Part shown: in pieces, positions 35,301 to 57,756 of the stretch
Layout of the letters: each line of letters starts with the position of its first letter
How positions within the stretch are numbered: position 1 is the first letter of the stretch
Origin: Candidatus Peregrinibacteria bacterium
GTDB lineage: Bacteria > Patescibacteriota > Gracilibacteria > UBA1369
Length of the DNA: 64,000 bases
Direction: 5' to 3'
Assembly (NCBI GenBank): GCA_963708185.1
Contig: OY970195.1
Coordinates: 1,088,001-1,152,000 of the forward strand
The notes under the pieces: model-generated
The model's database searches: none
Seen by the model: only the letters and a program-made list of their open reading frames with translations
What the model was told of the DNA's origin: nothing
Program-made: the position numbers and the translations under genes

Positions 35301-36371
35301 GCCGACGACCTTGATCTCATAATCGGTATCGCCGATTTTGAGAGTGTTTTTCGCGCCTTCACGGATCTCGATCTTGAAGACCGGAAGTCCGTTTTTATAA
35401 TCAAAAATATCTTTATCTCCGGTACGGTAGAGAACGACCTTGCCGTCTTCAATCTGGATGGAAGCGACCGGGCTCGTCGGCTGGCCGTGTTCGGTCTGTT
35501 CATCGTAGATAAGGAGGGGTTTCCCGGGCGTGACGACGGGAGACTGTTGTCCGCCGTCCTTCATGGTCGTTATTTCATGCACCTGTTGATCCGGCCCTTG
35601 TCCGATAAAGGTTACCGCCAACTGTACCGACGTGATTCTTACTTTCTCCGGCTGCGCCGGTTTTTCTTTTGAAGGTTCATGTGAGGTTTCGGCCGGAGCT
35701 TCAGCGGTGGCGCTGCGTTCCGTCGCGGGGGGTACCGGGGTCGGTTTCTTTTTCCCTTCGTTCCAAAGTTCAGTAAATTCGCCTTTTGCTTCAGTTTCTT
35801 TGACGACGATTTCACGTTTCGTTTCCGGGTTCAGAAAATCTTTTCCCACGGTGATAACCAACCCGCGGGCTTCGCTGGAAATAGCGGTACTCATGAGCTT
35901 CTGTACGGCTTTATCCTTGTCTTCACCGAATACTTTTTCGTCGATGAGAGTACGGACGGCGGTTTTCGGTTCGAGATTTTTCTGAAATTTGTTGAATTGA
36001 AGACCGAAATAAAGCCATGATTGCAGTCCGGTCAGAAGGTGCTCTTCCGTCAATGAAATTTCATCTTCGCTGATTTTTCCGGCAAGAACCCTGTTGAGGA
36101 GGATTTCGGTCAATTGTGCAAATTTCTGACCCGCACCGGCACAGGATTTGATTTTTTCGACAATCTGGGCGGCATCAAGATCGCCGCCCGGGATGGAGGC
36201 ATTCGATCCGATGTTGCCGATGGCCTTTGTCCAAAGCAGCAGTTTCTTTACTATGGGCTGCTGGAACATTTCCGGAGTCATGTCCTTTAAAGGAAATCCT
36301 TCCTGGAGTGCCGCTCGTTGTTCGAGTTCTTTCAGGGTAAAGACCGACGTCACCTGTTCGGAAGAGTCCAT
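32325..36371 (-). CDS. Large orphan protein (>=1348 aa) with degenerate FHA-like domains and helical C-terminal region; true start probably 36516 via a frameshift
   Basis: VVKIGTDPSNDIVLP and PLKDGDDIQIG resemble FHA strands; long ORF. Confidence 0.75.
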   Translation of the reverse strand: MDSSEQVTSVFTLKELEQRAALQEGFPLKDMTPEMFQQPIVKKLLLWTKAIGNIGSNASIPGGDLDAAQIVEKIKSCAGAGQKFAQLTEILLNRVLAGKISEDEISLTEEHLLTGLQSWLYFGLQFNKFQKNLEPKTAVRTLIDEKVFGEDKDKAVQKLMSTAISSEARGLVITVGKDFLNPETKREIVVKETEAKGEFTELWNEGKKKPTPVPPATERSATAEAPAETSHEPSKEKPAQPEKVRITSVQLAVTFIGQGPDQQVHEITTMKDGGQQSPVVTPGKPLLIYDEQTEHGQPTSPVASIQIEDGKVVLYRTGDKDIFDYKNGLPVFKIEIREGAKNTLKIGDTDYEIKVVGIGRETVQSRDSHPTIETRESMIHTFPAVLCVDADGQIISAYPCFGEKDRVVKIGTDPSNDIVLPQGKSYQKFNAEFLFLPGKKIFIRAGKEAALKFQNRPSGFVTSQAVKFDENEDVIAMGMNGDTLLFVARNDHPLSDADIRAFFQGKISRFAASLKEKSYDLPSITRLESEIIELNKTIEGFEDSIDLTATALAANQLIEEVTAATEAVAEEKRKEYEAKMAKRRHFNEGAGETAETPRPYKYPALVDKIEKDKSGKRILHLIFPPGLSMGKDKVNMLEAHAPQNERLSKYGVQDFECSFVLEDASNVRLVIEPRVLKNSAIKINEQIPGTRDGKTHELDMLRAPLKDGDDIQIGLDRYAFEPDHEFTKEALKPYVAAYLKEIMEVLVLYPDHGDKGDRKHAQESLAHFKDKRLVSEQQIKEVQAIFEKEKLAREVTSMTGAVIDQIREVDEELVIYTTSDQHLAGFPYDAELFNAGLALANEPEVRWEETGWTRDTYLQELSRSAIIRVHAYDKKLFDLRQKLLQPNYSQRFKTVFSNQAEEEYKNEQESLQRSFRKVLVEIVSLLKPELAEKDFHPGWLGTRLTTEQYPAVEEISAAQNIVASIEKGVGINAAEVRNLVDASQQKTCAEFLSFRNPEEQIAKVAMADYVLAKMKERAKAMFEQAGHGENISATLDQLEEFIAHGLVNHADIGSSPELFADLRTNEDYLNQVKAGKQALKVLMSSSETNIEDILEFSKRWLNEEFDLEDEDEENFKEYCREGLASAMNEARTGTMTSYIAILAKTAVRLKIVKPTDVAATPEELEKLHETAERTREMAEMRQMIEDVKTSNVYNLHPLLKLKKYLESRNQLSPADQNVTDLSPNILSKLVEDRLGMMFEQARGGEDPGLLQMVVEDMQQYGFANEIKKCVADMLADAIDAVYEETRTVEEVRPFIMALHLIGLWESMEEVREDVVNEHLTKSFDDPGMEVGKRVEKLGENLRLLGLYD

Positions 36372-40404: not shown

Positions 40405-41157
40405 ATGGCTCGAGAAAATCCCGATAACGATCTTCAGCTCTCAACGTATTTGAACTGCGATCCGAAACTGATCAAGGAACTAAAAAACGAACTTGAACCT
40501 TACGGGCTGACTCATGAACGTTTTGATTTGATCGATCTTTTGCACTCCGCGTTGGAATATAAAAAATCCGGAAAAGTTAAAAAACATCTGGAGGCGCTTG
40601 TGGATACGCTCATGAACATTCTCAAGCAAGGTGAAGTTCCAGAGGAAACACCCAAACAGCCGAACTCGATCGTCATTGAACAGCACGACGTTGCCGACCA
40701 GGTTCGCGCAGCCACCGTGGACGTGGTTGAGCTGAATTTTGAAGGGTCGGCCCTTGATACCGCCGACATGATTGAAACAATTGAAACGCTTTTGGGGAAA
40801 TACGGTCTTCAACGAGACGAGCTTTTGTTCGCCGTGTGTGGTGACAGCGAACTCGATGATCTTCTTCGTACGGGAATCGTTTCCTCAATGGAAGTGATGA
40901 AAAAAATCGCTCAAAAAGAAAAGGATATTCCTTCCGACGCAAGAAAGCTCATGGAGCTATCGCTCATCCTCAATGATTTCAACGATGAATTCAGCGAAAA
41001 AAATTTTTCCGATGCAACCTACAAATACGAAGAGCCTGTTTTGGCTTTTTTTCAGAAAGACCAGTTTGACAGTTACGGTACAAATTATTACATGAAGAAG
41101 AATCGTGCTGCCAACCCGCGCAAGACGTTGAGGCTCGTGGTGAAACTGAAATTCTAA
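40405..41157 (+). CDS. Hypothetical protein (250 aa)
   Basis: ATG ORF downstream of a promoter; no recognised motif. Confidence 0.75.
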   Translation: MARENPDNDLQLSTYLNCDPKLIKELKNELEPYGLTHERFDLIDLLHSALEYKKSGKVKKHLEALVDTLMNILKQGEVPEETPKQPNSIVIEQHDVADQVRAATVDVVELNFEGSALDTADMIETIETLLGKYGLQRDELLFAVCGDSELDDLLRTGIVSSMEVMKKIAQKEKDIPSDARKLMELSLILNDFNDEFSEKNFSDATYKYEEPVLAFFQKDQFDSYGTNYYMKKNRAANPRKTLRLVVKLKF

Positions 41158-44587: not shown

Positions 44588-44745
44588 TCGTCCGGGAGAG
44601 GCTCTGAATATGTCATTTCCCGTTATTTGTACGAATGCCGTATTTTTTTGGCCATCAATTCATTGCACATTGCCGATTTATGTTGTTTTATTGTGCTTTT
44701 TATGGTATTATTATGTGATATTTAAAAAACTAAAAAACAAACACT

Positions 44746-45108
44746 ATGGCTACAACTTCACCTTTGGACCAGCAAGCTTTTTCCATCAAAAAATTTAAAA
44801 GTTTATTTTATACCTCGCCGGCACGGCAGTTCATGTCTGACATGGACATCGAACAGGTGCGTAAAGCGATCGAGGATAAGGATATTCTGCTCCTTGGTCA
44901 GCTTTATGAAATTTTGCTTCACGAGCAGGTCACGAACGAAAACGTTATCCGCGATTTTGTGATGACCAAAAACAAAATCCTCGACGGGTTCACCGCTGAC
45001 GCCATGTCCATTGAAAAGAGATTCGTTGAAGCTCCGCGAAAAGAGAGGGCTGAAAAAGCAGAAAGAAAAGAGCAGAAGAAAGCGGAGGAAATTCTCAAAA
45101 AACTTTAA
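44746..45108 (+). CDS. Small helical protein, paralog 1 of 4
   Basis: ...LLHEQ...KAEEILKKL* C-terminus shared with 52794, 54305, 56310. Confidence 0.8.
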   Translation: MATTSPLDQQAFSIKKFKSLFYTSPARQFMSDMDIEQVRKAIEDKDILLLGQLYEILLHEQVTNENVIRDFVMTKNKILDGFTADAMSIEKRFVEAPRKERAEKAERKEQKKAEEILKKL

Positions 45109-45137
45109 AATTTTTATTAAAACTAAAACAAAAAAAT

Positions 45138-48100
45138 ATGAAAAATTTTTTCCATTTAACGGGCAGGTCTCTTTACGGATTCCAGCAGCATAACCGTTTC
45201 GTTTTCCAGGATGGGGGCCAGACCGAATCCTTCGCGCTTGCAGGTATAGAGGCAGGCCAAGAAAAACAATTATCTCCGGAAAATGGGAAGGAGGCTCTTG
45301 TTGCCCAATACAAACAGGCCAAGGAAACGATCGACAGCCAGGCGGCTCAATACAAAAAAAAGTTTGAAGGGAAAGAGGATGGTGATAAAGCCCAGGCAGC
45401 AATTGAAAAAGCCCGCGGAGATGCTCAAGAAAAATTAGCGGCATCGTATAACCAGATGGTCGGACAGTTGGAAAAAAATTCCGAGACGACGGCAAACGAA
45501 CAGGTAAACGCCATCATTTCCTACCGCAAGGAAAAAGCAGAAGGTAAATACAACGACGCCCTCATCTATGAGACAGTCCCGGGAAAGGCCGGCTTTACAT
45601 GGAGCCCGAAGGGCAAAGTCGGTGCAGATAAAAGCAACGAATGGAACCATCTGGGTGAGGGTGATTTCAAAGTGGCGCTGACCGCAATGATTAAAGCCGT
45701 CTACGTTGCCGAGGGTCCAAAAGCGGCAGATGATCTTGTCAACAAGATGAAGCACCAAAAGCTGGGGTTTGATGAAATGCAGGCCGATCCAGAATATGCT
45801 TTCGGGCAGGGCACTTACCATGATCCTCCGTTGATCCAGTTCAACCCGGACATGGACAACGACGAAAATGGTAACACACGTAAATTGACCGGTCTTGTTT
45901 TCGGTTACGCTCATGCCGCAAGAAACCGTCTTGAAAATGAGGATGCTCGTGAAGCATATTTTTCCTACCTGGCCAGCTCGGGAAAAAAGGCCGGCGCCGC
46001 ACCGCGATCCATGGATCCGGACGACATATTGACTCCCGACCAGTGGCTTGCACAGTCCGGGAATGAAAAATACCTCGGTGCCGCCAAAAAACTCGATGAA
46101 GAAAAACTCAACGAGGAACGGACCGCTCAAGTGGACGATTACCTCGGCAAACTTTCGAACACTAAACAACGTGGAGAATTAAAAGGCCTTCTTCTTGGAC
46201 GTTTGCAGGGAGAAAGCGATCCCAAAAAATGGAACCAGATCATGCGCGAAACTTCCGCCAGTGCATTTGGGATGACCCTTGATGTATACAGCAAAACCGA
46301 ATGGTCTGATCTTGATAAATCCCATCGTTCCAGCATCGATGATTTTGTGAAAAAAGCGCAGGCCAATATGGGGAAATATGTCCTGGAAGAAGGCCAGAAC
46401 CATGACGGTAAATCCGCCGGATATGTTGCGGGCCTTTTGATGAGGGCGGAAGAAAAATTCAAGGACGATCCCGCGATGCTTGCCAAGTATAAAGAACAAC
46501 TCAAGGCTATCACCGACTCCGAAGATCTCAAGAAAAAAATGGGCGATAATCTTGCGAATTCAGAATATTTTTCAAAAAGAGTGGGCGAAGTTGAAGACAA
46601 CTATTCTGCCAAAAAAGATGCCACCGAGAAGCTGAGCAAAGCGAATGACGCACTTTTCGATATCGTCAAGCAGGAGCTGCCTTCGCCGGATAAATTTGTT
46701 GCCGCTGCCAAAGAAGAAAAGGACGAAAAATACAAAAAAATTGGTGAGAAATACCGCAATCAGGAACGCTATGCCGACGACATGATCGCCAAAATTCCTG
46801 CAGACAAGGTCAAGGAACGCAATTATATCCGCAGTATTTTGATCGCTGCCGTAGGCAGGGAAACCGATCCCGATAAAATCAAGGCCCTGGGCGAAGCGGC
46901 ATTAAAAGATAAAGCCGGATTGAACCTTGATCCGGACAAACTTGGAAGCGTTGATTATGAAAAAAACCTCAAGGCTTTTGTTGATGCTCATACCGACTTT
47001 ACCGAGAATGGCAAAAAAATGGACGACCAGTCCAAAAGTTTGGCGGCAGGCTTGCTTTATGCAGCGGAAGTCAAATACAAGGATGAGCCGAATAAGGATA
47101 AAATCCTTGCCGCATATAAAAAGTATCTCAAGGGGAAAATGGATACTCTCGGTAAGGATTCCGATAACCAGGAAGATATTGAAAAACTCAAGTTGAAGCA
47201 GTCTTTGCTTGAGGATACCATCGATAAGGGAACGAGGGATAAAATCCTTGCCGATATTGATAAACTTCAGACAAAACTCTACAACAAAAGCTGGAATGCT
47301 ATGGCTTGGCCGGATACTTTTAAAGAGGACTTTAGCGACAACGAACAACTCATCACCGATAATAAAAACTTTTTAGATAAACATGGAACCCGGGAAAAGG
47401 TAGGCACTTTTCAGCCCGCAAACCGTGAGATCGATGCAATCCTGGATGAGTTTAAAAAAGACCATGCCGATGCGTATAGCAAGAATGAGGAAACTATCAA
47501 AGGAAAAATTGTCGAGTTCCATAAACGCATGGCGAGCAGAAATACCGATCCGGAAAAAGGAGAGGTGATTAAAACCCCTGGAGAACGGCTCAAACTTCTG
47601 GCAGAACTCCAGGGATATCTCTCGAATATGGCTGATGATGGGGTCGAAGAAAACCAGTATATTGATGCCACAGAAAAATATACTTATACCACAAAGATTC
47701 TTGAGGCATCCACAAATATCAATGAAGCTAAAAAGTATGTTCAGGGAATGGCTGAAGGTCTGGGCTTTGACGTCAAAAAAGACCAAAAGGCGATAGATGC
47801 GCTGAAGGCTGTCAATGACGCGAAACCGGAAGACAGGGCTCATGTTATGGCCGAACAGATTGCCGCACTTTATAAAGATTCTCCAAAACATCCTGAAAAT
47901 CCTTTCACGAAAGAGGATTTCGACGATTACAGCCAGTACATCCTTGATAAAAAGACTGCTCCGAAAACTCCGGGCGGTGGAACGGGTGGAGGCAGAGTCC
48001 CGTCCGTCGGACCTTCGGTTGCGCCGGGCAATGGAACTCCGGGAGGAACAAAAGGCCCGGAAATTGTTTCCAGCGTGAGCATCGACATTAGTGCAGCCCC

Positions 48101-48398
48101 GGTTGAAATCAAAATAGATCATAAGAAAGACCGCATGGAAAAACCTCCCCAATGGCTCGCAGGAAAAAGGGATGACATTCTCAAAAAATACAATCAAGAT
48201 GCCAGAAAAAATGATCTCTACGTGGTTCGGAGAGGGAAAGATGAATATGTGGCAGAGGTTTCGCCACTGATAGATTGGGATGGGAATACTATCGTCAACT
48301 ATTACAACAAACCTCCCGAACAAGGGAAAAAACCTGATGCCGGCGTGAAAGTTGCCAGCGCTGATTCAACGGAAAAACCGGATCCGGATAAAAAGTAA
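45138..48398 (+). CDS. Large orphan helical-repeat protein (1086 aa) with R-x-V-F leader
   Basis: N-terminus MKNFF...NRFVFQDGG; internal repeats AGLLxxAExKxKDxP...YKxxL; Gly/Pro linker before C-terminal domain. Confidence 0.85.
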   Translation: MKNFFHLTGRSLYGFQQHNRFVFQDGGQTESFALAGIEAGQEKQLSPENGKEALVAQYKQAKETIDSQAAQYKKKFEGKEDGDKAQAAIEKARGDAQEKLAASYNQMVGQLEKNSETTANEQVNAIISYRKEKAEGKYNDALIYETVPGKAGFTWSPKGKVGADKSNEWNHLGEGDFKVALTAMIKAVYVAEGPKAADDLVNKMKHQKLGFDEMQADPEYAFGQGTYHDPPLIQFNPDMDNDENGNTRKLTGLVFGYAHAARNRLENEDAREAYFSYLASSGKKAGAAPRSMDPDDILTPDQWLAQSGNEKYLGAAKKLDEEKLNEERTAQVDDYLGKLSNTKQRGELKGLLLGRLQGESDPKKWNQIMRETSASAFGMTLDVYSKTEWSDLDKSHRSSIDDFVKKAQANMGKYVLEEGQNHDGKSAGYVAGLLMRAEEKFKDDPAMLAKYKEQLKAITDSEDLKKKMGDNLANSEYFSKRVGEVEDNYSAKKDATEKLSKANDALFDIVKQELPSPDKFVAAAKEEKDEKYKKIGEKYRNQERYADDMIAKIPADKVKERNYIRSILIAAVGRETDPDKIKALGEAALKDKAGLNLDPDKLGSVDYEKNLKAFVDAHTDFTENGKKMDDQSKSLAAGLLYAAEVKYKDEPNKDKILAAYKKYLKGKMDTLGKDSDNQEDIEKLKLKQSLLEDTIDKGTRDKILADIDKLQTKLYNKSWNAMAWPDTFKEDFSDNEQLITDNKNFLDKHGTREKVGTFQPANREIDAILDEFKKDHADAYSKNEETIKGKIVEFHKRMASRNTDPEKGEVIKTPGERLKLLAELQGYLSNMADDGVEENQYIDATEKYTYTTKILEASTNINEAKKYVQGMAEGLGFDVKKDQKAIDALKAVNDAKPEDRAHVMAEQIAALYKDSPKHPENPFTKEDFDDYSQYILDKKTAPKTPGGGTGGGRVPSVGPSVAPGNGTPGGTKGPEIVSSVSIDISAAPVEIKIDHKKDRMEKPPQWLAGKRDDILKKYNQDARKNDLYVVRRGKDEYVAEVSPLIDWDGNTIVNYYNKPPEQGKKPDAGVKVASADSTEKPDPDKK

Positions 48399-48410
48399 CA
48401 TCTCTGCTGC

Positions 48411-51400
48411 ATGCCAGAAAATCTCCAGGAACAACTTGATCAGCGTATTGAAAACAAGGAGCAGGTTTCCGCCCTGGATGCTGCCGATGCCTACGCTCAA
48501 ACCATTGAAAGTCACCGCAGGGAGTACATCGCCAAAGGCGGCACTCCCGAAAATTTTGAAAAGGACGAAAAAGCTTTCGTGGAGAAAGCCCGGGAAATCC
48601 GTAATAAGCAGCTCGACAAGATCGGGCTTTTGAACCAGGACCTGGAACGAAAAAAAATTTCCGTCGTCGACAAGACGAGGACCGCTGAGCGAAAAGAACG
48701 TTATGAAAATGCCCAAAAATACGGCTGGGATACAACCGATCCGGACAAAGAGGGAAACATGGACGATTTTGAAGGCACGGGTGACGACAACAAATGGGGC
48801 TTTGGACGAACGGCTCTTGCCGGTTATGTTTCCGGTTTGCAAATGACCGATCCGGCGATGGCTTCCGAAGCTATGAGAAAAGTGCAAGAAGCCTATAAAA
48901 AAACTTCTTCCTGGGGTGATCATTACGTCAGCAACCAGGATATCCGTGACATTATCGGCAATGAGTATCTTTCACAACTGGAGGGGCACCATTTGACGGA
49001 CCGCGCGATGGCATTTCTGGCTTCCTATTTGCGGCAGGCTGATTCTTTTTTTAAAAATTCCGACGAAAACAATACCTATAAAGGTTATGTCGTCGACGCC
49101 ATCGATGACCGATTGAACTCCACGCAGCAACCCGCCGCCCAGGCGGAACATGAGAGTTCCACCGGATGGGGAATCGGCGGGGGCGTCATCGGAACAGCTC
49201 TTGCCATACCGCTCGGACCTATTGCCCCCATTGGCGGCGCTATTATCGGTTCACAGGCTGGCGGCAGTGAGGTCGAAACGTATGCCAGCAAAAACGCACG
49301 TGCTGAGGCACAGCTCAACGCACTTTCAACAATATTGACCCCCAAGGAGTGGAAGGAAGCCTGGACCCAGCGCCTCAAGAACACCCTGGAACCTTTCAAA
49401 AAACTTTGCGACACCATTGTGGCGGCAAATCCGGAATTTACATTCCAAAACCAGGACGTCAAGGACATGCTCGGCAAAAATGCCGACGACCTGATATATT
49501 CCGATGAAACCAAACTCATTGCGGCCAAGGAGAAAGCGCGCGAGGAGCTTCGCGATTTCATGCAAAAGAAAAAAGACGAGTATTCCGGACAGGTCGAAAG
49601 CAATAAAAAAAGCGCTGCCGACCTCAAGGCCAGATACAAGACTCTCCGCATCCCGACGGTCAGCGATGACGAATGGAGCGCTCTGGATACAAGCCTCAAC
49701 CAGCAGGCACAAGACATGGACTCGATCGCTTTTGTTTCCAACACTTCGATGGAAGACCTTGCCGCGATGTGGGGGAAACTGGTGATGGTCCGGGACGGCA
49801 ACGGCCTTTTGCGCAATCAGTTCGACGCTCTGTCGTCACGCATCAAGGATGCGGAAGAAAAAGAGCCGGCCATCGCAAAATTTACCGCCGACAAAGACCT
49901 TCTCGAGACGTACGATCCCAAGACCAAACAGTTCAGCTATACCGCCAACGGGATGCGCTTTGAAAGTGCAAAGGGGAAAGCGCAGGCGACGTTCGGCAAC
50001 CCGGAAATCAACAAAATTTTTGAAAGCAAAATTTCGCCGTTTTTCACCAATATCATCTCAAAGTACAAACTTTCTTCTGATGAGAAAAAGCATGCGGATG
50101 AGATCATGTCCAAGGCCGACAAGAACGATGAAAAGCAGATGGCCGCGGCGAACAAAGAGGTGATGGAATATGTCATGGAGCGTTTCCAGTCGAGAATGAA
50201 AGCAGACGATAAAGAAAAAATCGACAAGATCAGTGCCCTCATTGATCAGGCTGACAAGGATTCGACCTTCAGTTTTGACCATATGCCTTCGGCGGAAGAG
50301 CTGCAAAAGGCTTACGACGAAAAATTCGTTCCGGCGTGGGAAAAAGCCGCCAAAGATTTTGACGCTCAATACGGCAAGGCCACGGGCGAACAACCTTCGG
50401 GCACGGTGGGCGGCGGGTTTCTTGGCGGAGAAGAAACGCCGGAAACCGCTCCTTCAAGCCTTGATCCTTACAGCGACCATTGGTCCAAAGGAACGGACGT
50501 TCCGCTTGATCCGGACTACAAAGGTTTTACCGGCGGGCTGGAAGTCGCCCCGAACATCGAAGATTTGAAATTCCGCGACGTCAACACCCATAAAATTCTT
50601 CTGGCGGTTCCCGGAGGCACCGGAGCCACCGCCAATGAAATCACTCTTTCAGAGCCCGAAGGCACCATCCACAAGGTGGACAGCCTGAGTTTCGTCAAAG
50701 TCAATTACCAGGGCAAAATCTACTACGCGGCCATGGAGTATCTTCAAAAGAACGACCAGTCGCTTATTGCCGAACGGGAAGCCAAGAATGGATCTCCAAA
50801 GATGCCCGGAACTCCGGCAAATCCCGAGGTCCAGCAGGGGCTGCCGAAAGGTCTTGAATTCCTGGGCAAGGTCAACGGCGAATACCGCGACGCCCTGGAA
50901 AGGATTTTGCGCGACAGCGAAAAACCGGGCGGTGCTCTCTTTGACCTGTATTTCAACAAAAAAACGTTGCCGTGCCGTTTAACCAAAGCTCCCAAAGGAC
51001 AATACATCGTGAACTGGGAAGGCGGTTCGTTCACCTACCGTAACCTGAACGAGGTCATGATCGGCATTAACAACGGCTTTTTGCTTCAACAGATTACGTA
51101 CGGAGCGCTGTTGTCGCCGAAATATTACGAAGCTTACGAAGATAAAATCGACAGTTTCAAGGACGACGTCAAAGCGACGGGCAGACCCGGGGAGGTCTAT
51201 TTTGAACTCGACTGGTCCGGTGCCGGACGCGGCGAAGGAAACGCCCAGGTCTGGGCGACGGCACTGCCGAACGGGCTCGTCAACTATCACATCCACCGTG
51301 ATCACGTGGACATCAACGGGGGCAACGACCGCAATGGCATCGCGGGAAGTTTTGACGATTTCATGCAGCAGATCGCGCACATCAAGGAGTGGTCGGAGTA

Positions 51401-51830
51401 TTACGAAGATAACCGCGACGACAGAAAACTGTCCCAGGCCGTGATGAACCGTGAATGGTTCTACGCGCAACTGAATAATCCCCAGACTTTCTACGACGCC
51501 GAGAGCGCCATCGGCCGGCCGGTTTCTTTTAATCTCATCAGCAACGGCGTGATGCAGATGTTCCTGGACTGGGGCGGAGGAGCGGCGCGTGATACCGGCC
51601 ATAACGCGATGCTGAACGTGTGGGCCGACAACAGCGGCAGACTGAACTACATTCTGAATTATAAAGGCAAAGGTCCCAGGGGCGTCGCCAAAGACATCCC
51701 TGAACTTATCAACATTGTCGGGAATCAACGAGCTGCCGTTCTCCAAACCTCACCCGGCGAAACGCCCAAAGAACAGCCAAAAAATACGAGCGGCGTCCCG
51801 GTGGCATCTCCCAATGAAAAAGCGGCATAG
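48411..51830 (+). CDS. Large orphan protein (1139 aa): N-terminus paralogous to 45138, glycine zipper, SH3-like segment, duplicated C-terminal module
   Basis: GWGIGGGVIGTALAIPLGPIAPIGGAIIG; FVKVNYQGKIYYAAMEYL; two LDWxG...N...NY modules. Confidence 0.85.
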   Translation: MPENLQEQLDQRIENKEQVSALDAADAYAQTIESHRREYIAKGGTPENFEKDEKAFVEKAREIRNKQLDKIGLLNQDLERKKISVVDKTRTAERKERYENAQKYGWDTTDPDKEGNMDDFEGTGDDNKWGFGRTALAGYVSGLQMTDPAMASEAMRKVQEAYKKTSSWGDHYVSNQDIRDIIGNEYLSQLEGHHLTDRAMAFLASYLRQADSFFKNSDENNTYKGYVVDAIDDRLNSTQQPAAQAEHESSTGWGIGGGVIGTALAIPLGPIAPIGGAIIGSQAGGSEVETYASKNARAEAQLNALSTILTPKEWKEAWTQRLKNTLEPFKKLCDTIVAANPEFTFQNQDVKDMLGKNADDLIYSDETKLIAAKEKAREELRDFMQKKKDEYSGQVESNKKSAADLKARYKTLRIPTVSDDEWSALDTSLNQQAQDMDSIAFVSNTSMEDLAAMWGKLVMVRDGNGLLRNQFDALSSRIKDAEEKEPAIAKFTADKDLLETYDPKTKQFSYTANGMRFESAKGKAQATFGNPEINKIFESKISPFFTNIISKYKLSSDEKKHADEIMSKADKNDEKQMAAANKEVMEYVMERFQSRMKADDKEKIDKISALIDQADKDSTFSFDHMPSAEELQKAYDEKFVPAWEKAAKDFDAQYGKATGEQPSGTVGGGFLGGEETPETAPSSLDPYSDHWSKGTDVPLDPDYKGFTGGLEVAPNIEDLKFRDVNTHKILLAVPGGTGATANEITLSEPEGTIHKVDSLSFVKVNYQGKIYYAAMEYLQKNDQSLIAEREAKNGSPKMPGTPANPEVQQGLPKGLEFLGKVNGEYRDALERILRDSEKPGGALFDLYFNKKTLPCRLTKAPKGQYIVNWEGGSFTYRNLNEVMIGINNGFLLQQITYGALLSPKYYEAYEDKIDSFKDDVKATGRPGEVYFELDWSGAGRGEGNAQVWATALPNGLVNYHIHRDHVDINGGNDRNGIAGSFDDFMQQIAHIKEWSEYYEDNRDDRKLSQAVMNREWFYAQLNNPQTFYDAESAIGRPVSFNLISNGVMQMFLDWGGGAARDTGHNAMLNVWADNSGRLNYILNYKGKGPRGVAKDIPELINIVGNQRAAVLQTSPGETPKEQPKNTSGVPVASPNEKAA

Positions 51831-51887
51831 CAAAAGGATTCATTCGTTTTCCATCAATTTACCATCTATATTCTCACCAAAATTCAT

Positions 51888-52769
51888 ATGAAAAAATTTA
51901 TTTGTTTCAGAAATTTCGCAAACGTTAACCGCTTGGTTTACGCGGCCGGCGGGGAGAAACCATCACAGCCTGAAAATGCCGAGGTGATTCCAAAAGATGC
52001 GGATTTAACTCCGGCGAAACTTGATGAAATTTCCAAAGCCGTCGATAACAATATCAGCGCCGTCGAAGACTATTATAAGGGCGGTGAATCCAAGCTCATG
52101 CATCATCCCGATATGCCGAAGCAGGTCAAAACCCAGTTGGATCAGCTGAAGCAGTTAAAAATCCAGCTCGACCAGGTCAAGGCAAATCCGGCAGGCGCGC
52201 GTCAGGTCCTCGGAAAAATTTACCGTATTTTTACCCAACTTGAAGCACACAGTGAGGAACGGTACAAAGCCGATATCGCATCGCATGATCCTCTTGTCGG
52301 CCTGGGTTTCAGCATCGATACTCCGGAACTCGCACCGGCAGCTCCGAAAACGACCAAGGCTGAAAATGCTCCAGAGACAAAAGAAACACAGCAACAGCTG
52401 GTACGAAGCGCCGTCGAAAACATTGCGCGCGCCGGCGGAGAATTGACCCAGCCCATGCTCGACGCCCTGAAAACCCAATTCAAAGGAACAAATGTCCTTT
52501 CCTACACCCTGAATATTCAGGGAAATCCGGTACTGGTCTTCATTGAACGTTCTCCCGACGGGAAAGGTTTCCAGGCGAAGGGTGTCCGCTACAACGCCGA
52601 AGTCCCTCTGGAAAAACAGGCTTCCTCCTGGGATACCGCAAGTTTCACCTATACCCATTCCTTTGACGCCTTGGACAACTCACCTCCATCCGTTCCCGAC
52701 AAAAGCATTCAAGAGTACGTTTCCCAGGGCAAAAAAGGTAAAAAACTCAACCCGACGGCGCTTGGCTAA
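51888..52769 (+). CDS. Orphan protein (293 aa) with R-x-V-Y leader
   Basis: MKKFICFRNFANVNRLVYAAGGEKP. Confidence 0.82.
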   Translation: MKKFICFRNFANVNRLVYAAGGEKPSQPENAEVIPKDADLTPAKLDEISKAVDNNISAVEDYYKGGESKLMHHPDMPKQVKTQLDQLKQLKIQLDQVKANPAGARQVLGKIYRIFTQLEAHSEERYKADIASHDPLVGLGFSIDTPELAPAAPKTTKAENAPETKETQQQLVRSAVENIARAGGELTQPMLDALKTQFKGTNVLSYTLNIQGNPVLVFIERSPDGKGFQAKGVRYNAEVPLEKQASSWDTASFTYTHSFDALDNSPPSVPDKSIQEYVSQGKKGKKLNPTALG

Positions 52770-52793
52770 AAACCCTTATCTTCATCGAACATC

Positions 52794-53111
52794 ATGGATC
52801 AATCTCTCCAGGACGAGCTACAGGAACTCATCGAATCTTCTTTGAGTATCGCCACGCTCAGTGACGACAACCAGGCCGCGTTGAAAAAACGATTGCTCGC
52901 TCTTCCTGAGGACGAGATGAGAAGGGTCGTCGAGGTTTTGCGCGGTGAGCAGAAACAGCAGTATGAAGCCATGAAAGGGCTAGTGCAAAAAATCGAGAAC
53001 GCCAGCACCACCCTCAAAAAGACTTTTCTCAAGGAGCGCGAAAAAGAAGAAACCAAACAGTCCGACCAGAAAGCCGACCAGCTCATCAAAAAGCTGGATG
53101 ACATGGATTAA
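52794..53111 (+). CDS. Small helical protein, paralog 2 of 4
   Basis: SIATLS...LLALPE...LRGEQ...ADQLIKKL. Confidence 0.82.
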   Translation: MDQSLQDELQELIESSLSIATLSDDNQAALKKRLLALPEDEMRRVVEVLRGEQKQQYEAMKGLVQKIENASTTLKKTFLKEREKEETKQSDQKADQLIKKLDDMD

Positions 53112-53127
53112 GGCGCATGCAGCGGGT

Positions 53128-54186
53128 TCAAAACGGGACGATGTCCCTGATTTTTTTCACGGTCACCAAAAGAAAATACCAGAAAGGCTGGTAAACAATT
53201 TCACGCGCGGGCTGGTAATCCACTCGTTGCCCTCCGAATTTGAGCTTGAAATCGGTGACGCCGGCCCAGGGATGTGTCGGTTGATTTTGCGGAGCGATCC
53301 CGAGAAAATCATACCATTTGCAGCCTGCGGTTTTGGCGTCGAGGAGGGCGCGCCACTGCAGAAGATACGGCGCCATGACGTTGCGGTGTTCGTTGGAGGA
53401 CGCTCCGAAATAGTAGATCGCGGTATCGCGGTAGAACGTGACGATGATGCCCGCCACGATTTCATCTTTATACTCCGCTAGGTAAAGTTTGGCTTCTGGA
53501 TGCGATAAATCGTGACCATGGCCGTTGCGTCCGGGATGTAAGGTCGAAAGCATGTCTTCATAAAATTTTTTGTTGTGACCCGAAAATTTATCGCGCGAGG
53601 TGGTTTGTGAAAGAAGCCGGTAAAAGGCGTCGATATCTTTTACGTTGCCGTCACTGGCCCGGACCGAAACGTGATGTTTTTCAGCGACCCTGATGTTATA
53701 GCGGCCCTTGGGTTTCATCTGCGATAGAAGCCGCTCTTCGGAGAAAGAAAGATCCAGCAGAAGCGTGTTTTCCGGCTGGTAGTGCGCATGGGCTTTGCGT
53801 GAGGGAAGATCTTTCCAGTAGATTTTTTCTTCTTGGGGAAGCGGGGGGTCGAAGCGGAAAAATACCGCATTTTGTTGCCTGGCGAGATCGCGGATTTTTT
53901 TGAGGAGGTGTTTGAGCGCCCGGTGATCGTGGTAATCGGCCAAAGGGCCGCGAGGGCAATACAGCCAGCATTTTTTGAATGGAAGCTCCTGGCGAATAAT
54001 AAGGGCTGAAGCCATTATTATGCCGTTTTCGTCCTCAACGGCGTAACACCAGAATTTTTCACGACCTGCGAGGCTGGTCTGAAATTCTCCCCACTGGGGT
54101 GTCTGGTGGATGGAACCGAGTGGATGTTTCCCCACAAAAGACAGGTATTTCGGCCAGTCATTTTTGGTGATCTCAATGACTTTCAT
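53128..54186 (-). CDS. FemABX-family peptidoglycan bridge aminoacyltransferase
   Basis: HQTPQWGEF, YCPRGP, MKPKGRYNIRVA, YYFGASS, APYLLQW, YDFLG, FKLKFGG. Confidence 0.93.
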   Translation of the reverse strand: MKVIEITKNDWPKYLSFVGKHPLGSIHQTPQWGEFQTSLAGREKFWCYAVEDENGIIMASALIIRQELPFKKCWLYCPRGPLADYHDHRALKHLLKKIRDLARQQNAVFFRFDPPLPQEEKIYWKDLPSRKAHAHYQPENTLLLDLSFSEERLLSQMKPKGRYNIRVAEKHHVSVRASDGNVKDIDAFYRLLSQTTSRDKFSGHNKKFYEDMLSTLHPGRNGHGHDLSHPEAKLYLAEYKDEIVAGIIVTFYRDTAIYYFGASSNEHRNVMAPYLLQWRALLDAKTAGCKWYDFLGIAPQNQPTHPWAGVTDFKLKFGGQRVDYQPAREIVYQPFWYFLLVTVKKIRDIVPF

Positions 54187-54304
54187 AAGCTTAAAAATCA
54201 GGCAAAACCTACTTTACCATATCATTGTGTCGGTGAAACGAAGAGTGTTGCGATATTGGGCTTTTTATAGTATAATTATATGATCAAATAAACTCAAGAT
54301 ACAT

Positions 54305-54661
54305 ATGGCTGATTACGATCTTATCAAGAATACCGAACTGCGGCTTCTCGTTACAGCTTCGGAAAGTATCCGCAGCTTGAAGGAGCAGGAAATTCAACAG
54401 TGGGTTGAACGTATTGCCGCACTGCCTCCAGAGGGAGAACGGGCGATGCTCGTAGCCCTTCGTGATGAACAGGAACAAATACGCAAAGCAAAACTTGCGA
54501 AAGGCATTACCCCTGAAATGGAGCGCGCGGAGCGTGAAAAGAAAATGGAGAAAGTGTACGCCATCAAAAAAGATTTTGAAAAAGTCGTGCGAATAGAAAA
54601 CGAAAAAACTGCCAACAATGAATCAAGCGCAGAAGCAGAATCTTTACTTAAAAAACTTTAA
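54305..54661 (+). CDS. Small helical protein, paralog 3 of 4
   Basis: SIRSLK...IAALPP...LRDEQ...AESLLKKL*. Confidence 0.82.
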   Translation: MADYDLIKNTELRLLVTASESIRSLKEQEIQQWVERIAALPPEGERAMLVALRDEQEQIRKAKLAKGITPEMERAEREKKMEKVYAIKKDFEKVVRIENEKTANNESSAEAESLLKKL

Positions 54662-54677
54662 ACATTTTTCCCGTTCT

Positions 54678-56291
54678 ATGAAAAACAAACACCTCAAAAT
54701 ATTTCTTCAAGATGAAAACGGCAGTTTTTTCAAACAGCCACGCGTTGTTTTTCAAAACGGAGCTGAAAAACCACAGGAGAACGAGAATAAAGCCCCCGAA
54801 CAGAAAAAAGAAGTTTCACAGCTTGGCTATGATTTTGCCCTCAGTGATGCAAGAAAAGCCATTGCTCCTTATCTGGAAACGAAAATAGAGAATGCAAACA
54901 TCAATGTCGCCGCCCTGAAAGCAAAGGCGGATCTTGATGCACTGGATGTTCGCGTCGACGTTCTTGATAAGGCGGCAAAAGAGGCCAACCTCCAGAAAAT
55001 GCGATCGATCATGGAACGATTTTCCGCTTTCCCCATCGTCAAAGAAAAACAGCAAAAGGCCGTCAAACTCCGAGAGGATCTGATAAAAGATTCCGAAGCA
55101 AAAGCGAAAAAAGCCATTGATGATGTAGTGACTCAATTCGCGAACGTCAAAGGATTCGAGATGAGCGGCGCCCTGAAAACCGACCTTGATGATTACGAAC
55201 AGTCGGTTGAAGGAGGCATGGACATACAGATTGAAGCAACGGCCGGAGAACTCAACACGAACCTGGCGAATCTTGACGGTGCGGGCTTAACCGCCGAAGG
55301 CGCAGCTCTCGACGGAGTCATCAAAAAACTCGACGGAACCGATGTCACACTGAACAAGTACATTGAAAACGCTCTTCGCGATGCCAAGCCGGTAGCGGAA
55401 GGAAAAATCCTTATGGAGATGAGCAAAGGCAAAGACCCTGAAGCCGCCAAACAGTTCATCTCCAAGCAGATCGATGCAAGAATCGCTGCACTTCCCCACA
55501 AAGATGAAATCGACAACGACCGTTCGCGCGGGCAAGAAGCAAAACTGACTCAATTGCGCGATCAGATTCTGGCATCGCTGGATGCTGCAAAAGGTCCGAA
55601 AGACGGCCCGAAAAGATTTACGATCCTGGCGTATTTCCAGGACCAGCTCAACGCCATGGACGTGAAACCAGGCACTCCGGATAATGAGAAACCTTCCCGC
55701 GTCCGGGACGCTTACGGCAAACAGGTTGACCTTGAACTTCAACAGCAAACCGACATTCTGGCCAGGAGAAGGCAGGAATCAGGAACACTGGCCCAGAGAC
55801 TCTTCAACGCCCAGGAACGAGCCAAGAAGGATCCCGACTACAAGGTTGACCCCAAATTGAAAGCTGATGCAGGGAAAGCCTACCTGGCGTTCCGTGAACA
55901 AGAGAAGGCGGTCAAAAAACTGCAGGGCGCGCAGAAAGAGGTCGGTGTTCTTCCACAAGAACCACCGCTGACCAAAGCGCCGGAAATCGGCCCAATCGCC
56001 ACCGCAAAAAGCGTCAAGGATACCATCGACACCTTAAAGTTCAATACCATCGACGGCACCGGAAAAGCCAAAGCCACCATCGACGGCGTTGACGTAACCA
56101 TAACCAAACTCGGACCTCCTTCCTTCAGTACTTCCGTGGATGTTGAAGATAATCCCGATCTCGGCATCACCACCAACATCTCCGGAGACCCTTTTTCCGT
56201 TTCCGAAAGTCTCGCCTGGGCCATCCGCCAGAAAAAAATCACTGACCGAGGCAAAGCCAAGCCCGACGCTTCAGTCGCGGAAAATAAGTAG
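54678..56291 (+). CDS. Orphan helical protein (537 aa) with R-x-V-F leader
   Basis: MKNKHL...FFKQPRVVFQNGAEKP. Confidence 0.83.
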   Translation: MKNKHLKIFLQDENGSFFKQPRVVFQNGAEKPQENENKAPEQKKEVSQLGYDFALSDARKAIAPYLETKIENANINVAALKAKADLDALDVRVDVLDKAAKEANLQKMRSIMERFSAFPIVKEKQQKAVKLREDLIKDSEAKAKKAIDDVVTQFANVKGFEMSGALKTDLDDYEQSVEGGMDIQIEATAGELNTNLANLDGAGLTAEGAALDGVIKKLDGTDVTLNKYIENALRDAKPVAEGKILMEMSKGKDPEAAKQFISKQIDARIAALPHKDEIDNDRSRGQEAKLTQLRDQILASLDAAKGPKDGPKRFTILAYFQDQLNAMDVKPGTPDNEKPSRVRDAYGKQVDLELQQQTDILARRRQESGTLAQRLFNAQERAKKDPDYKVDPKLKADAGKAYLAFREQEKAVKKLQGAQKEVGVLPQEPPLTKAPEIGPIATAKSVKDTIDTLKFNTIDGTGKAKATIDGVDVTITKLGPPSFSTSVDVEDNPDLGITTNISGDPFSVSESLAWAIRQKKITDRGKAKPDASVAENK

Positions 56292-56309
56292 TCATTAACT
56301 TTATACGTC

Positions 56310-56615
56310 ATGACCAAAGAACAGTACCTTGCCAACATCCGGAAATTCGACGTCATCAACAGTCTGAGCAGCGAACTCCGCCAGTCGTATATGAATGCAG
56401 ATCAGGTTACCTTTGAAACCAATTTGCGTATGCTTGAACTTGCGCAGGGCGACGTGAAATCCGCAAAAAAGACCTACCTGACGGCGGTGCATGAGGCCGC
56501 GGCCGTGTATGAGAAAGATGCCCAGACGGCCAGACACGACCTGACGAAGAAAGCGGAAAGCAGGGTCCAGACCTCGGATGAGGCCGCGGCCGAAAAACTT
56601 ATTCAAAATCTTTAA
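56310..56615 (+). CDS. Small helical protein, paralog 4 of 4
   Basis: VINSLS...LELAQ...AEKLIQNL*. Confidence 0.8.
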   Translation: MTKEQYLANIRKFDVINSLSSELRQSYMNADQVTFETNLRMLELAQGDVKSAKKTYLTAVHEAAAVYEKDAQTARHDLTKKAESRVQTSDEAAAEKLIQNL

Positions 56616-56634
56616 AAAACTTATTTTTAAATCT

Positions 56635-57756
56635 ATGAAAAAATTTCTTCATTGTCTGCCGTCGTTCCGTTCTTCATTCTTCCCGAAGCGAGCGGTTTTT
56701 ATGGGCGAAGTTCCTTCCCAGGCAGACCAGCAGGTCGCAAAAGAAGCCATCAAGGCCAAAGCTCCGGAACTTGAAAAAAAAGGCGAAGCTTTCCAGCAGC
56801 AGCTGGATGCCATGAGCGACGAACAGCTGCAGAAACTGAATGTCGACACGGAAGCAAAAAGCGCCAAAGACGATGTGGACAAAACATTCCAGGACATCAT
56901 GAACGATCCCGTCGTGAACCCGAAGCTCGGAGAAGGAAAGTTCTACACTCCCGGTTCTTATGAGACGCATGCTGATATCCAGCCTTTGCGCGAAGCACGC
57001 GACAACGCGAAAAAGGCCATTGAAAAAGCCCAGGAGGACTGCAAGGAAAAACAGAAGGAAATTACCGACGTCCTCGATCTTCAGCGCAACTCCAGGGTCA
57101 ATGTTGAAGAAGGTTTTAAGACCATGGCCTCCAACAAAGCAGAGATGATGAAAATCCTGGACTCCGATCCGGCAAAATTGAAGATGGAAGACATCCAGCA
57201 ACTCGATCAGAAGTTGAAAAGCGTTACCGGCACCAATGAGTTTCTCACCAATACCATTTACGCCAATCTTGACCAGAATCTTCAGAAGGTCGATGAAATG
57301 AAATTCAAGGACTCTCTTGCGAGCGTGAAGTTTGCGCATGATCTCATGCAGACTGACCTGAAATCTTTCGGCGATACTTTCGCCCAAGTGGATAACGCTT
57401 CTCAGATTTACAAATCTGCTTCAGGTTTTGTGGAAGGCATGAAGCTTCGTTCGCAAGCCAATGCCAGCAACGACGCAACGAAGTTCGACCAGTCTAAGGC
57501 CATGCTTGATGCCGCCAAAAAAAGCGCAGACGGATTCCGTACTATCCGCATCGGCGTTCCGGGAGCCGCTCCCGCCGAAGCCGTGGCACGCGTTGGAACG
57601 ACCAGTGTTGAACATTATGAAGGTGGAGGGAAAGTTGTTGTTGAAAGCGAACCTATCCCGGGTGTAAGAACGGGCGTAACGACCGTTGAACAACCAACTC
57701 CGGGCGTACAACCTGTTGCAGTGGAAGAAAAACCCAAAGAAAAACCGGGCGCGTAA
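56635..57756 (+). CDS. Orphan coiled-coil protein (373 aa) with R-x-V-F leader
   Basis: MKKFLH...SFFPKRAVFMGEVP; C-terminal PGV/VE repeats. Confidence 0.83.
   Translation: MKKFLHCLPSFRSSFFPKRAVFMGEVPSQADQQVAKEAIKAKAPELEKKGEAFQQQLDAMSDEQLQKLNVDTEAKSAKDDVDKTFQDIMNDPVVNPKLGEGKFYTPGSYETHADIQPLREARDNAKKAIEKAQEDCKEKQKEITDVLDLQRNSRVNVEEGFKTMASNKAEMMKILDSDPAKLKMEDIQQLDQKLKSVTGTNEFLTNTIYANLDQNLQKVDEMKFKDSLASVKFAHDLMQTDLKSFGDTFAQVDNASQIYKSASGFVEGMKLRSQANASNDATKFDQSKAMLDAAKKSADGFRTIRIGVPGAAPAEAVARVGTTSVEHYEGGGKVVVESEPIPGVRTGVTTVEQPTPGVQPVAVEEKPKEKPGA

Follow-up and report, generated by a model that had tools for sequence, protein, structure and literature searches.

The window analysed here, a stretch of 64,000 nt (positions 1,088,001-1,152,000 of contig OY970195.1, assembly GCA_963708185.1), comes from the closed 1.437-Mb genome (GC 49.8%) of a Candidatus Peregrinibacteria bacterium, and at 44746-57756 (+) it carries nine same-strand orphan genes in the order S1, L1, L2, L3, S2, S3, L4, S4, L5, wherein S denotes a small helical protein and L a larger one, and four of the L proteins begin with a common tag (Table 1). 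As the initial annotation had described, these are nine co-oriented ORFs over 13 kb, and their products gave nothing above the Pfam cut-off (the best match being DUF7146 at 3.4e-4, below the cut-off) and no PHROGs match at E<=0.01. The three S-L pairs that it had listed with gaps of 16-29 nt likewise agree with the coordinates, the intergenic distances being 29 nt for S1-L1, 16 nt for S3-L4 and 19 nt for S4-L5, and so does the position of S2, which comes directly after the tagged L3 and has no tagged gene on its 3' side in the window's genome. As judged from sequence comparisons, the S and L genes make up a two-component module that is real, conserved and unannotated, and its N-terminal tag is new.

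Table 1. Genes and sub-regions of the S/L cluster, with two further features within its span (positions in the window)
Feature	Position	Strand	Basis or remark
S1, small helical partner, 120 aa	44746-45108	+	ORF call; C-terminus A-E-E-I-L-K-K-L
L1, tag-bearing large protein, 1086 aa	45138-48398	+	ORF call, tag motif
L1 N-terminal tag, about residues 1-30	45138-45227	+	Motif alignment; core R-F-V-F-Q-D-G-G
L1 residues 48-129, helical region predicted to bind S1	45279-45524	+	Complex prediction
L2, large protein without tag, 1139 aa	48411-51830	+	ORF call
L3, tag-bearing protein, 293 aa	51888-52769	+	Tag core R-L-V-Y-A-A-G-G
S2, small helical partner, 105 aa	52794-53111	+	ORF call, profile
S3, small helical partner, 118 aa	54305-54661	+	C-terminus A-E-S-L-L-K-K-L
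L4, tag-bearing protein, 537 aa	54678-56291	+	Tag core R-V-V-F-Q-N-G-A
S4, putative divergent small helical partner, 101 aa	56310-56615	+	C-terminus A-E-K-L-I-Q-N-L
L5, tag-bearing protein, 373 aa	56635-57756	+	Tag core R-A-V-F-M-G
FemAB-family peptidoglycan-bridge transferase	53128-54186	-	Pfam FemAB, 3.2e-45
ORF of 127 aa just after S2	53098-53481	+	Antisense to the FemAB gene

The four S proteins have in common an N-terminal h-x-x-L-h-x-x-S and a central L-x-x-x-L-x-x-E-Q, and all of them carry the C-terminal motif A-[ED]-x-L-[IL]-[KQ]-[KN]-L, which forms the exact end of the protein in three of the four. When compared with each other by blastp, S2 matched S3 at 9.5e-11 and S1 matched S2 at 0.007, while S4 was undetected pairwise; a leave-genus-out profile, made from 31 sequences that are all of other genera, recovered S1 (4e-28), S3 (2e-25) and S2 (7e-17), and gave S4 just 0.0044, beneath one unrelated ORF. 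The earlier proposal that the small genes are mutual paralogs therefore stands for S1, S2 and S3 but not in the same measure for S4, which we call a divergent member because its profile match is weak and a pairwise match is absent; its putative membership is suggested chiefly by size, position and the C-terminal A-E-K-L-I-Q-N-L.

Outside the lineage, the S family has no described counterpart in the collections searched. Forty-six S-family members compared with Pfam at E<=0.01 gave 13 scattered families with one or two members each, WXG100 not being among them, and the profile search against PDB sequences yielded a best E of 0.43. A collection of 5.8 billion proteins contains 36 homologues, two of which are named 'hypothetical protein' (JGI) and one of which is an NCBI hypothetical protein of a Candidatus Gracilibacteria bacterium, the rest being nameless; in the ESM Atlas, the S1 query returned solely nameless clusters (score 0.82-0.84) labelled Peregrinibacteriota or Altimarinota, which serve as leads only. 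The AlphaFold2 model of S3, derived from a 46-sequence alignment, is all-helical (pLDDT 76), with a predicted bundle at residues 1-65 and a long helix at 70-117, and Foldseek found no fold match for this model in the PDB (best E of 17 hits, 1.5). In some relatives, S members possess extra C-terminal pieces beyond L-L-K-x-L (L019:15727-16110 (+), L018:4141-4530 (-) and L040:3383-3862 (+)); two of these three finish with a basic run plus F-G-I-F, and one with a hydrophobic, membrane-anchor-like stretch.

The N-terminal motif that had been noticed on four of the five larger genes was recovered in just those four: L1, L3, L4 and L5 share M-K-[KN]-(F)...R-h-V-[FY]-x-x-G, and L2 is without it. The tag comprises 22-33 residues in these proteins, is basic and aromatic with nearly no acidic residues, and closes on the consensus R-h-[VI]-[FY]-x-x-G-x-[ED], often ending G-G, G-A or G-S (G-[GAPS]) before an acidic residue. 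Since a first hidden Markov model (HMM) of the tag, made from four sequences, was too weak (5 matches in related loci), an anchored alignment was used instead, and the leader-profile scores are 7.4e-9 for L1, 2.6e-11 for L3, 8.3e-10 for L4 and 8.7e-12 for L5. A strict tag pattern run over the whole genome picks out one unrelated protein besides these four genes and nothing else. All six Arg codons are used at the core Arg, the very position that had served to select and anchor the sequences; because all six occur there, the tag is, on codon evidence, under selection as a protein signal, and for the same reason we discarded the idea of an element acting at the RNA level where the L genes begin. 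The tag is also, from a comparison of orthologues, a separable module, because two orthologues within the genus begin right after it yet retain the S gene: these are the partner of an S3-like gene in G002/G001 and the L5 orthologue of G003 (62% identity), the latter starting at the M-G-E that comes after the tag.

This tag is neither a Sec nor a Tat signal. In no N-terminus of the 52 tagged proteins does a 19-residue window reach a Kyte-Doolittle mean of 1.6 (the maximum is 1.44), so that the hydrophobic core of about 7-15 residues behind a basic N-terminus, typical of Sec signal peptides, is lacking, and signal-peptide-like N-termini of the ordinary type are present elsewhere in the window's genome. 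As for the twin-arginine motif of Tat signals, K or R precedes the core Arg in some tags only, polar or acidic residues come after it, and a hydrophobic region is lacking, although the Tat genes themselves were not searched. A link to the N-terminal pro-peptide of ribosomal protein L27 and its Prp protease was dropped, as the L27 of this genome starts M-A-H-K-K and has no extension.

The pairing of S genes with tagged genes recurs in relatives. Of 41 related genomes, counting that of the window, 27 are matched by a model of the four window S genes; within the same family the matches cover 21 of 24 genomes, and elsewhere in the order 5 of 16 other families. The 39 loci taken around S matches from relatives contain 58 S-family ORFs, of which 50 have an ATG ORF no more than 300 nt downstream, and 31 of these 50 carry the tag motif, scored as R-[FLVIAMNGT]-[VICAL]-[FY] within the first 48 residues. 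The background is 46/1232 (3.7%), counted on non-overlapping long ORFs of the window's own genome as proxy genes. Hence the S-tag adjacency is, as far as such counts go, more than chance and the enrichment is large, in line with the earlier expectation that the S family would be enriched next to leader-bearing genes in other genomes; the binomial value of 8e-32 overstates it, because the relatives are kin and not independent. The sequences compared have, in addition, diverged widely from one another. The other 19 downstream genes include two tandem second S genes, two near-variants of the motif and three that start where the tag would end. In one relative (G019), the L3 orthologue has its own S gene upstream and a tagged gene of 232 aa comes after the S2 orthologue, so that both possess a partner that is absent from the window's genome. 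Additionally, the tag profile matches 32 of the 41 relatives at E<=0.01, and 28 of its 45 matches at E<=1e-4 have an S-family match directly upstream, a count with some circularity in it, since S-adjacent genes went into that profile. An S-L fusion by frameshift or read-through was considered and rejected, as the frame offsets calculated from the coordinates differ among the three pairs.

One complex was modelled, namely S1 (40-sequence alignment) with L1 residues 1-220 (10-sequence alignment), together with three controls. The cognate pair gave ipSAE values of 0.76, 0.73 and 0.77 across runs, with at least 77% of contacts in common and a partner pLDDT of at least 79, and the best of the three controls reached 0.00. 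In the calibration of the tool, 58 of 80 solved complexes attained the mark, as did 2 of 110 mismatched pairs, counts which are only rough here because our own alignments were used. The predicted interface joins S1 23-98 to L1 48-129, and in the 220-residue N-terminal alignment of L1 the conserved columns, the tag aside, cluster at the same residues 48-129 by our reading of the consensus; the L1 tag (1-30) and the S tail both lie outside the interface. We regard the binding of S to L as likely, more so than the delivery reading set out below. A cognate interface, which the initial annotation had called for, is thus predicted for S1-L1 (0.76 against 0.00 for the best control), and its idea of chaperone/cargo pairing gains from this modelled contact, but the contact falls on L1 48-129 and not on the leader.

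The chromosomal setting of the module is conserved as well. The cluster is flanked by housekeeping genes, with release factor 2 (RF2) and peptide deformylase upstream and FtsZ and FtsA converging from downstream, and the order prfB-def-[S-L]-L2-femAB-[S-L]-ftsZ-ftsA recurs, complete or partial, at loci from 9 more genera of this family and from 6 other families of the order. Because this gene order recurs across both family and order, the cassette is, by synteny, old and chromosomal, not mobile. On the identities of its orthologues, it has diverged much more quickly than the housekeeping genes around it: same-genus identity is 98% for FtsA, 92-95% for FtsZ, 75-83% for RF2 and 64-69% for FemAB, whereas the values are 56-64% for S1, 41-47% for L2, 42-46% for S3 and 29-39% for L1, and L3 and L4 gave no tblastn match at E<=1e-5. 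The S4 orthologue of G003 is 55% identical. Copy number and gene content differ between close relatives.

The S family itself extends beyond the paired system. Run against 1.84 billion proteins, a richer S profile found 629 cluster representatives (E<=0.001), the best 150 of the 629 being 91-136 residues long, bar one of 228, and it matched 253 of 301 genomes sampled from the class. Most of these class matches are a core paralogue, usually single-copy and the nearest relative of the S family, which carries the motif S-E-S-M-x-x-x-E-R-Q-Y-W-F-x-x-L-P-x-M and an acidic tail of the S type, and which has no Pfam family. In the window's own genome, this paralogue lies at 695164-695793 (+) (locus L092:4765-5391) and is a 209-aa protein with an S-like C-terminal half, S-E-S-M-x-x-x-E-R-x-Y-W-F-x-I-L-P-x-M and the tail E-E-A-L-L-K-R-L. 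S-type genes with a clearly tagged gene downstream were found outside the order in the class sample in two families (f27 and f35), and the short tag profile at E<=1e-5 matched only 9 of 151 class genomes. The paired system is therefore mainly a feature of this order, and it arose from an older, class-wide helical protein. Because this class-wide, single-copy ancestor type is unpaired with tagged genes, the S fold is not intrinsically a chaperone of tagged cargo. Among the carriers of the core paralogue are genomes in which TGA seems to be a sense codon.

Tagged proteins vary greatly in what follows the tag: overall they are 82-2283 aa long and have unrelated bodies. Among 20 added loci (weaker, S-less or new tag-profile matches), 19 have a long ORF that opens with the tag, these ORFs encoding 130-2283 aa, and one of them alone (L067) has an S-family gene just upstream. 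Of 21 such tagged proteins searched against Pfam, two of them from the window's genome, five have a GDSL-like hydrolase match, above the cut-off in two; an 849-aa protein combines GDSL with a phage-tail lysozyme domain (28.7 bits, cut-off 28.2), and another has a sub-threshold kinase match. A lysozyme without a Sec signal needs another way out of the cell. Across all 52 tagged proteins, 45 have no Pfam match.

Further tagged genes occur in the window's own genome. A fifth one (199395-201527, 710 aa), just after a 510-residue ORF read by its N-terminal sequence as methionyl-tRNA synthetase, lies amid pilin-like and PilT-like genes (locus 194968-205317, L013); its neighbours, among them a PilT-like ATPase and three genes whose N-termini are of the prepilin type, are the sole hint of a link to a pilus, which is anecdotal. 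At 550399-554719 (-) (L053), two tagged genes of 864 and 573 aa stand in tandem with no S gene upstream; the first has a weak C-terminal GDSL-like hydrolase match (25.9 bits, below the cut-off), and the second contains an H-S-G-G stretch resembling an esterase nucleophile elbow. A possible mini-pair is located at 328649-329223 (-) (L054), where a 109-aa helical ORF (S profile 8.5) is followed by an 82-aa ORF that starts M-M-N-I-F-K-E-N-R-L-I-F-Q-Q-Q (tag profile E 0.0089).

Within the cluster, all nine proteins are rich in K, E and D, and no hydrophobic stretch of the membrane-spanning type was seen in them apart from a poorly conserved Gly-rich stretch of L2; that stretch (residues 250-290) had been considered as a membrane glycine zipper and was dropped, being the least conserved part of the protein. 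L1 is rich in K, D and E, with a Gly-rich linker, a small C-terminal domain and no hydrophobic N-terminus. Among the large genes of the cassette, the tag-less L2 shows the best conservation, and in relatives it usually adjoins femAB; it has 9 homologues, two of them 'hypothetical protein' (JGI) and the others nameless, none with a precomputed Pfam domain, and the ESM Atlas held no usable match for it. Its C-terminal 421 residues (690-1110; window 50478-51740) were modelled at pLDDT 86 as several alpha/beta modules, contain two copies of the internal repeat L-D-W-[SG]-G-x-x-x-x-x-G-x-N-A and had no PDB fold match at E<=0.001, so that this part may be a new fold. When the C-terminal 200 residues of eight large proteins from the genome (seven tagged ones and L2) were compared with each other by blastp, nothing fell below E 0.25. 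Since Pfam, PHROGs and PDB searches were all negative, the cluster maps to no known cytoplasmic or phage family, a placement that the initial annotation had named as refuting its proposal; of the three refuting outcomes that it had listed, none was obtained. 

As for two features on which the initial annotation is silent, the FemAB gene is a housekeeping gene, syntenic throughout the order, that interrupts the cluster and stands outside the S/L system, and the ORF at 53098-53481 is taken as spurious by its position alone, because it is antisense to the FemAB gene. The cluster genes have a GC content of 45-51%, against 47-56% elsewhere in the window. The S-L junctions are A/T-rich, and no Shine-Dalgarno-like G/A-rich motif was seen in the 40 nt 5' of each of the nine starts (44706-56634). 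A scan for promoters and terminators gave counts close to those in shuffled sequence, with one promoter-like site at 54248-54276, 5' of S3. Two other genes of the window, situated near the cassette at 32325-36371 (-) (1348 aa) and 40405-41157 (+) (250 aa), had no Pfam match at E<=0.001.

Taking these findings together, we propose that the cluster is a lineage-specific helper/cargo module whose tagged polymorphic proteins are made for delivery, a reading for which we see the case as evenly balanced. An L protein would consist of a tag about 25-35 residues long, a helical region, a long charged and fast-evolving body and a variable C-terminal domain. S would pack on the helical region of its L partner to give a heterodimeric helical bundle, in which the L tag and the S C-terminal tail (A-E-x-L-L-K-x-L) would be left exposed; exposed in this way, tag and tail could act as the recognition signals that hand the complex to a Sec-independent route encoded elsewhere. 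Export or delivery is suggested because the tagged proteins have no Sec signal (the lysozyme-GDSL protein included), because the tag is common to unrelated bodies, and because the cassette shows fast birth-and-death evolution. The tagged L proteins are thus probably exported, the export and its machinery both being inferred, and they would be surface or host-directed factors of a symbiotic small-genome bacterium; that they are host-directed effectors is suggested by the lack of a Sec signal, by their fast divergence and by the lysozyme and GDSL domains in tagged proteins of relatives. A more specific version, wherein the tag is the address of an unrecognised Sec-independent delivery route in Peregrinibacteria-type bacteria and a co-delivered S supplies the second half of the signal through its tail A-E-x-L-L-K-x-L, is put forward only tentatively and is itself rather doubtful.

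Several observations weigh against delivery. The S1-L1 score is a model confidence, obtained for one cognate pair. The tag is found also without an adjacent S gene, and S genes are retained beside L orthologues that begin after the tag; therefore neither element is obligatory for the other. The core paralogue makes up 16 of the 20 class loci examined, and tagged genes do not come after it. One tagged protein carries GGDEF (55.9 bits), which needs GTP and therefore works only inside a cell, either the bacterium's own or that of a host. None of 31 S-adjacent tagged proteins has any Pfam domain, for which reason the enzyme evidence rests on tagged proteins with no detected adjacent S gene (L067 excepted). 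The conserved site beside ftsZ and femAB would equally fit a role in the envelope or in division.

The searches for a machinery in the closed genome add to this side. FtsK_SpoIIIE (PF01580) had one match above the cut-off, a 758-aa frame that is taken as the housekeeping FtsK, and one sub-threshold P-loop, with no multi-domain ATPase of the EssC/EccC type; VirB4 reached 18 bits, below its cut-off of 21; and the C39 peptidase (PF03412) had no match at E<=0.01. T4SS-DNA_transf was found in two frames above the cut-off (42.4 and 24.1 bits) and in a third, at 422 kb, below it. ATPases like this type IV secretion system (T4SS) coupling protein (T4CP) are present in 40 of the 41 relatives whether or not the tag is found, and because of that presence their phyletic pattern is uninformative. 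The genome also has three ordinary ABC_membrane exporters and three ATPases of the T2SS-E type (type II secretion system), all three outside the window. In this genome, the T4CP-like ATPases are three scattered paralogues of about 830-910 aa with hydrophobic N-termini (509835-512396 (-), 535213-537693 (+) and 420609-423335 (+)), and among the unannotated ORFs near them no other T4SS-like genes were noticed. A published survey reports a T4SS lineage across Patescibacteria (PMC12102498), and a second source treats cysteine-rich proteins and cites its Supplementary Table S4 for them (PMC4736985). Literature searches, judged by listings and abstract openings, found no paper on the S family or the tag.

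The S and L proteins could instead stay inside the cell as a coiled-coil scaffold for division or wall synthesis, with the tag as a docking or membrane-binding peptide and S as a co-subunit. We consider this unlikely, yet it stays alive because of the GGDEF cargo, which fits the cytoplasm, the core paralogue, which is single-copy, nearly class-wide and housekeeping-like, the tag-less orthologues, and the site between def, femAB and ftsZ-ftsA that is kept across the order; highly charged, helical proteins with neither a transmembrane segment nor a signal peptide would suit such a scaffold, and so would the 0/31 S-adjacent tagged proteins with an enzyme domain. Division scaffolds are usually conserved, however, whereas L1 falls to 29-39% within a genus in which FtsZ keeps 92-95%, L3 and L4 go undetected there, and copy number and gene content vary among close relatives; moreover, lysozyme and GDSL proteins act on substrates beyond the cytoplasmic membrane, and the cassette genes converge on ftsZ and do not form a common operon with it. 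It is more improbable still that the tag has no part in targeting and instead controls which isoform of L is made or how active L is, as a pro-peptide that is cleaved off or as a segment due to an alternative start, S being only an assembly chaperone. The tag end G-[GAPS] plus an acidic residue does resemble a processing site, a Met often comes after the R-h-V-[FY] core (6 of 36 aligned tags, counted from the alignment), two orthologues start exactly at that point, and the tag lies outside the predicted S interface; but the genome has no leader peptidase of the C39 type, and a tag common to unrelated bodies fits a generic address better than the regulation of one enzyme.

Two further explanations fare worse. 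A small gene tightly beside a large variable one, in a system where some tagged proteins have hydrolase domains, could suggest that S is an antitoxin or immunity protein neutralising a toxic L, which we hold to be very improbable: S is predicted on the N-terminal helical region and not on the variable C-terminal domain, no toxin domain is recognisable in the S-adjacent L proteins (0/31 with a Pfam match, known defence families being checked through Pfam only), and the enzyme-bearing tagged proteins were not found next to S genes. That the cluster is the remnant of a phage or another mobile element, as orphan and fast-diverging genes might intimate, is hardly credible in view of the negative PHROGs search, the fixed chromosomal site between housekeeping genes across the order, a GC content near that of the rest of the window and the finding that 0 of 10 flanking genes scanned is an integrase or mobility gene.

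The proposed helper/cargo module for delivery resembles several secretion systems in part, and in its logic it comes nearest to the substrate pairs of the type VII system and the chaperone or adaptor pairs of the type IV system. In the type VII secretion system (T7SS), LXG toxins pair with small Lap helpers in Firmicutes, and PE pairs with PPE in mycobacteria. As in those pairs, the gene of the larger protein has immediately upstream of it a gene for a helical protein of about 100 aa, several paralogous pairs with variable bodies and fast evolution occur per genome, and free terminal motifs could serve as signals; the S1-L1 model also fits the joining of the small protein with the N-terminal helical region of the larger one in a helical bundle. 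Unlike T7SS components, the S and L proteins (46 S; 5 + 31 + 21 L or tagged proteins) match none of WXG100, LXG, PE and PPE, the four window S proteins have no W-x-G (S1, S2 and S4 are Trp-free, and the one Trp of S3 is outside such a motif), the genome is without an FtsK ATPase of the EssC/EccC type, and the S/L system adds an N-terminal tag that T7SS substrates do not have. For class I chaperones of the type III secretion system, no CesT-type Pfam match was obtained among the 46 S members, and S3 is predicted to be all-helical and not mixed alpha/beta as in the CesT/SycE type.

The T4SS offers chaperone or adaptor pairs in VirE1-VirE2 and in IcmS/IcmW with Dot/Icm effectors. There, too, a small acidic or helical helper stands beside, or binds, a large protein, and T4CP-like ATPases are present in this genome; however, the S proteins have no sequence match to VirE1 or IcmS/IcmW, and the known T4SS signals are C-terminal, whereas the tag here is N-terminal. 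Polymorphic toxin and effector systems join a conserved N-terminal trafficking module to swappable C-terminal enzyme domains, and the S/L system is alike in placing one N-terminal tag on diverse bodies, some of them with GDSL, lysozyme or GGDEF; it differs in that no immunity gene was identified, the genes downstream of the enzyme-bearing tagged proteins not having been examined, in that most tagged proteins have no Pfam match at all, and in that the tag matches no described trafficking domain. With double-glycine leader peptides, the export of which is by peptidase-containing ABC transporters, the tag has in common that it is short, N-terminal, free of a hydrophobic core and often closed by G-G, G-A or G-S, but the spacing of its hydrophobic residues departs from the consensus of such leaders, the C39 peptidase of those systems is missing, and the cargo has hundreds to thousands of residues and is not a peptide. 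The system would function like a polymorphic effector set with a dedicated helper, but it belongs to no described family.

Little is known of the means by which the small-genome bacteria of candidate phyla attach to their hosts, feed on them or kill them, and the effectors identified in these bacteria are few. A tag that can be read from sequence, borne by large, fast-evolving proteins of which some have lysozyme and lipase-like domains, would provide a concrete list of candidate delivered proteins and, if the address reading is true, would give the effector repertoire from sequence, while a dedicated helper family predicted to bind the cargo would offer a handle for pull-downs. Should the proteins prove to be cytoplasmic, they would represent a new lineage-specific scaffold family beside the division genes; should export be confirmed, the module described here would extend bacterial protein secretion by a new signal and, probably, by a new route.

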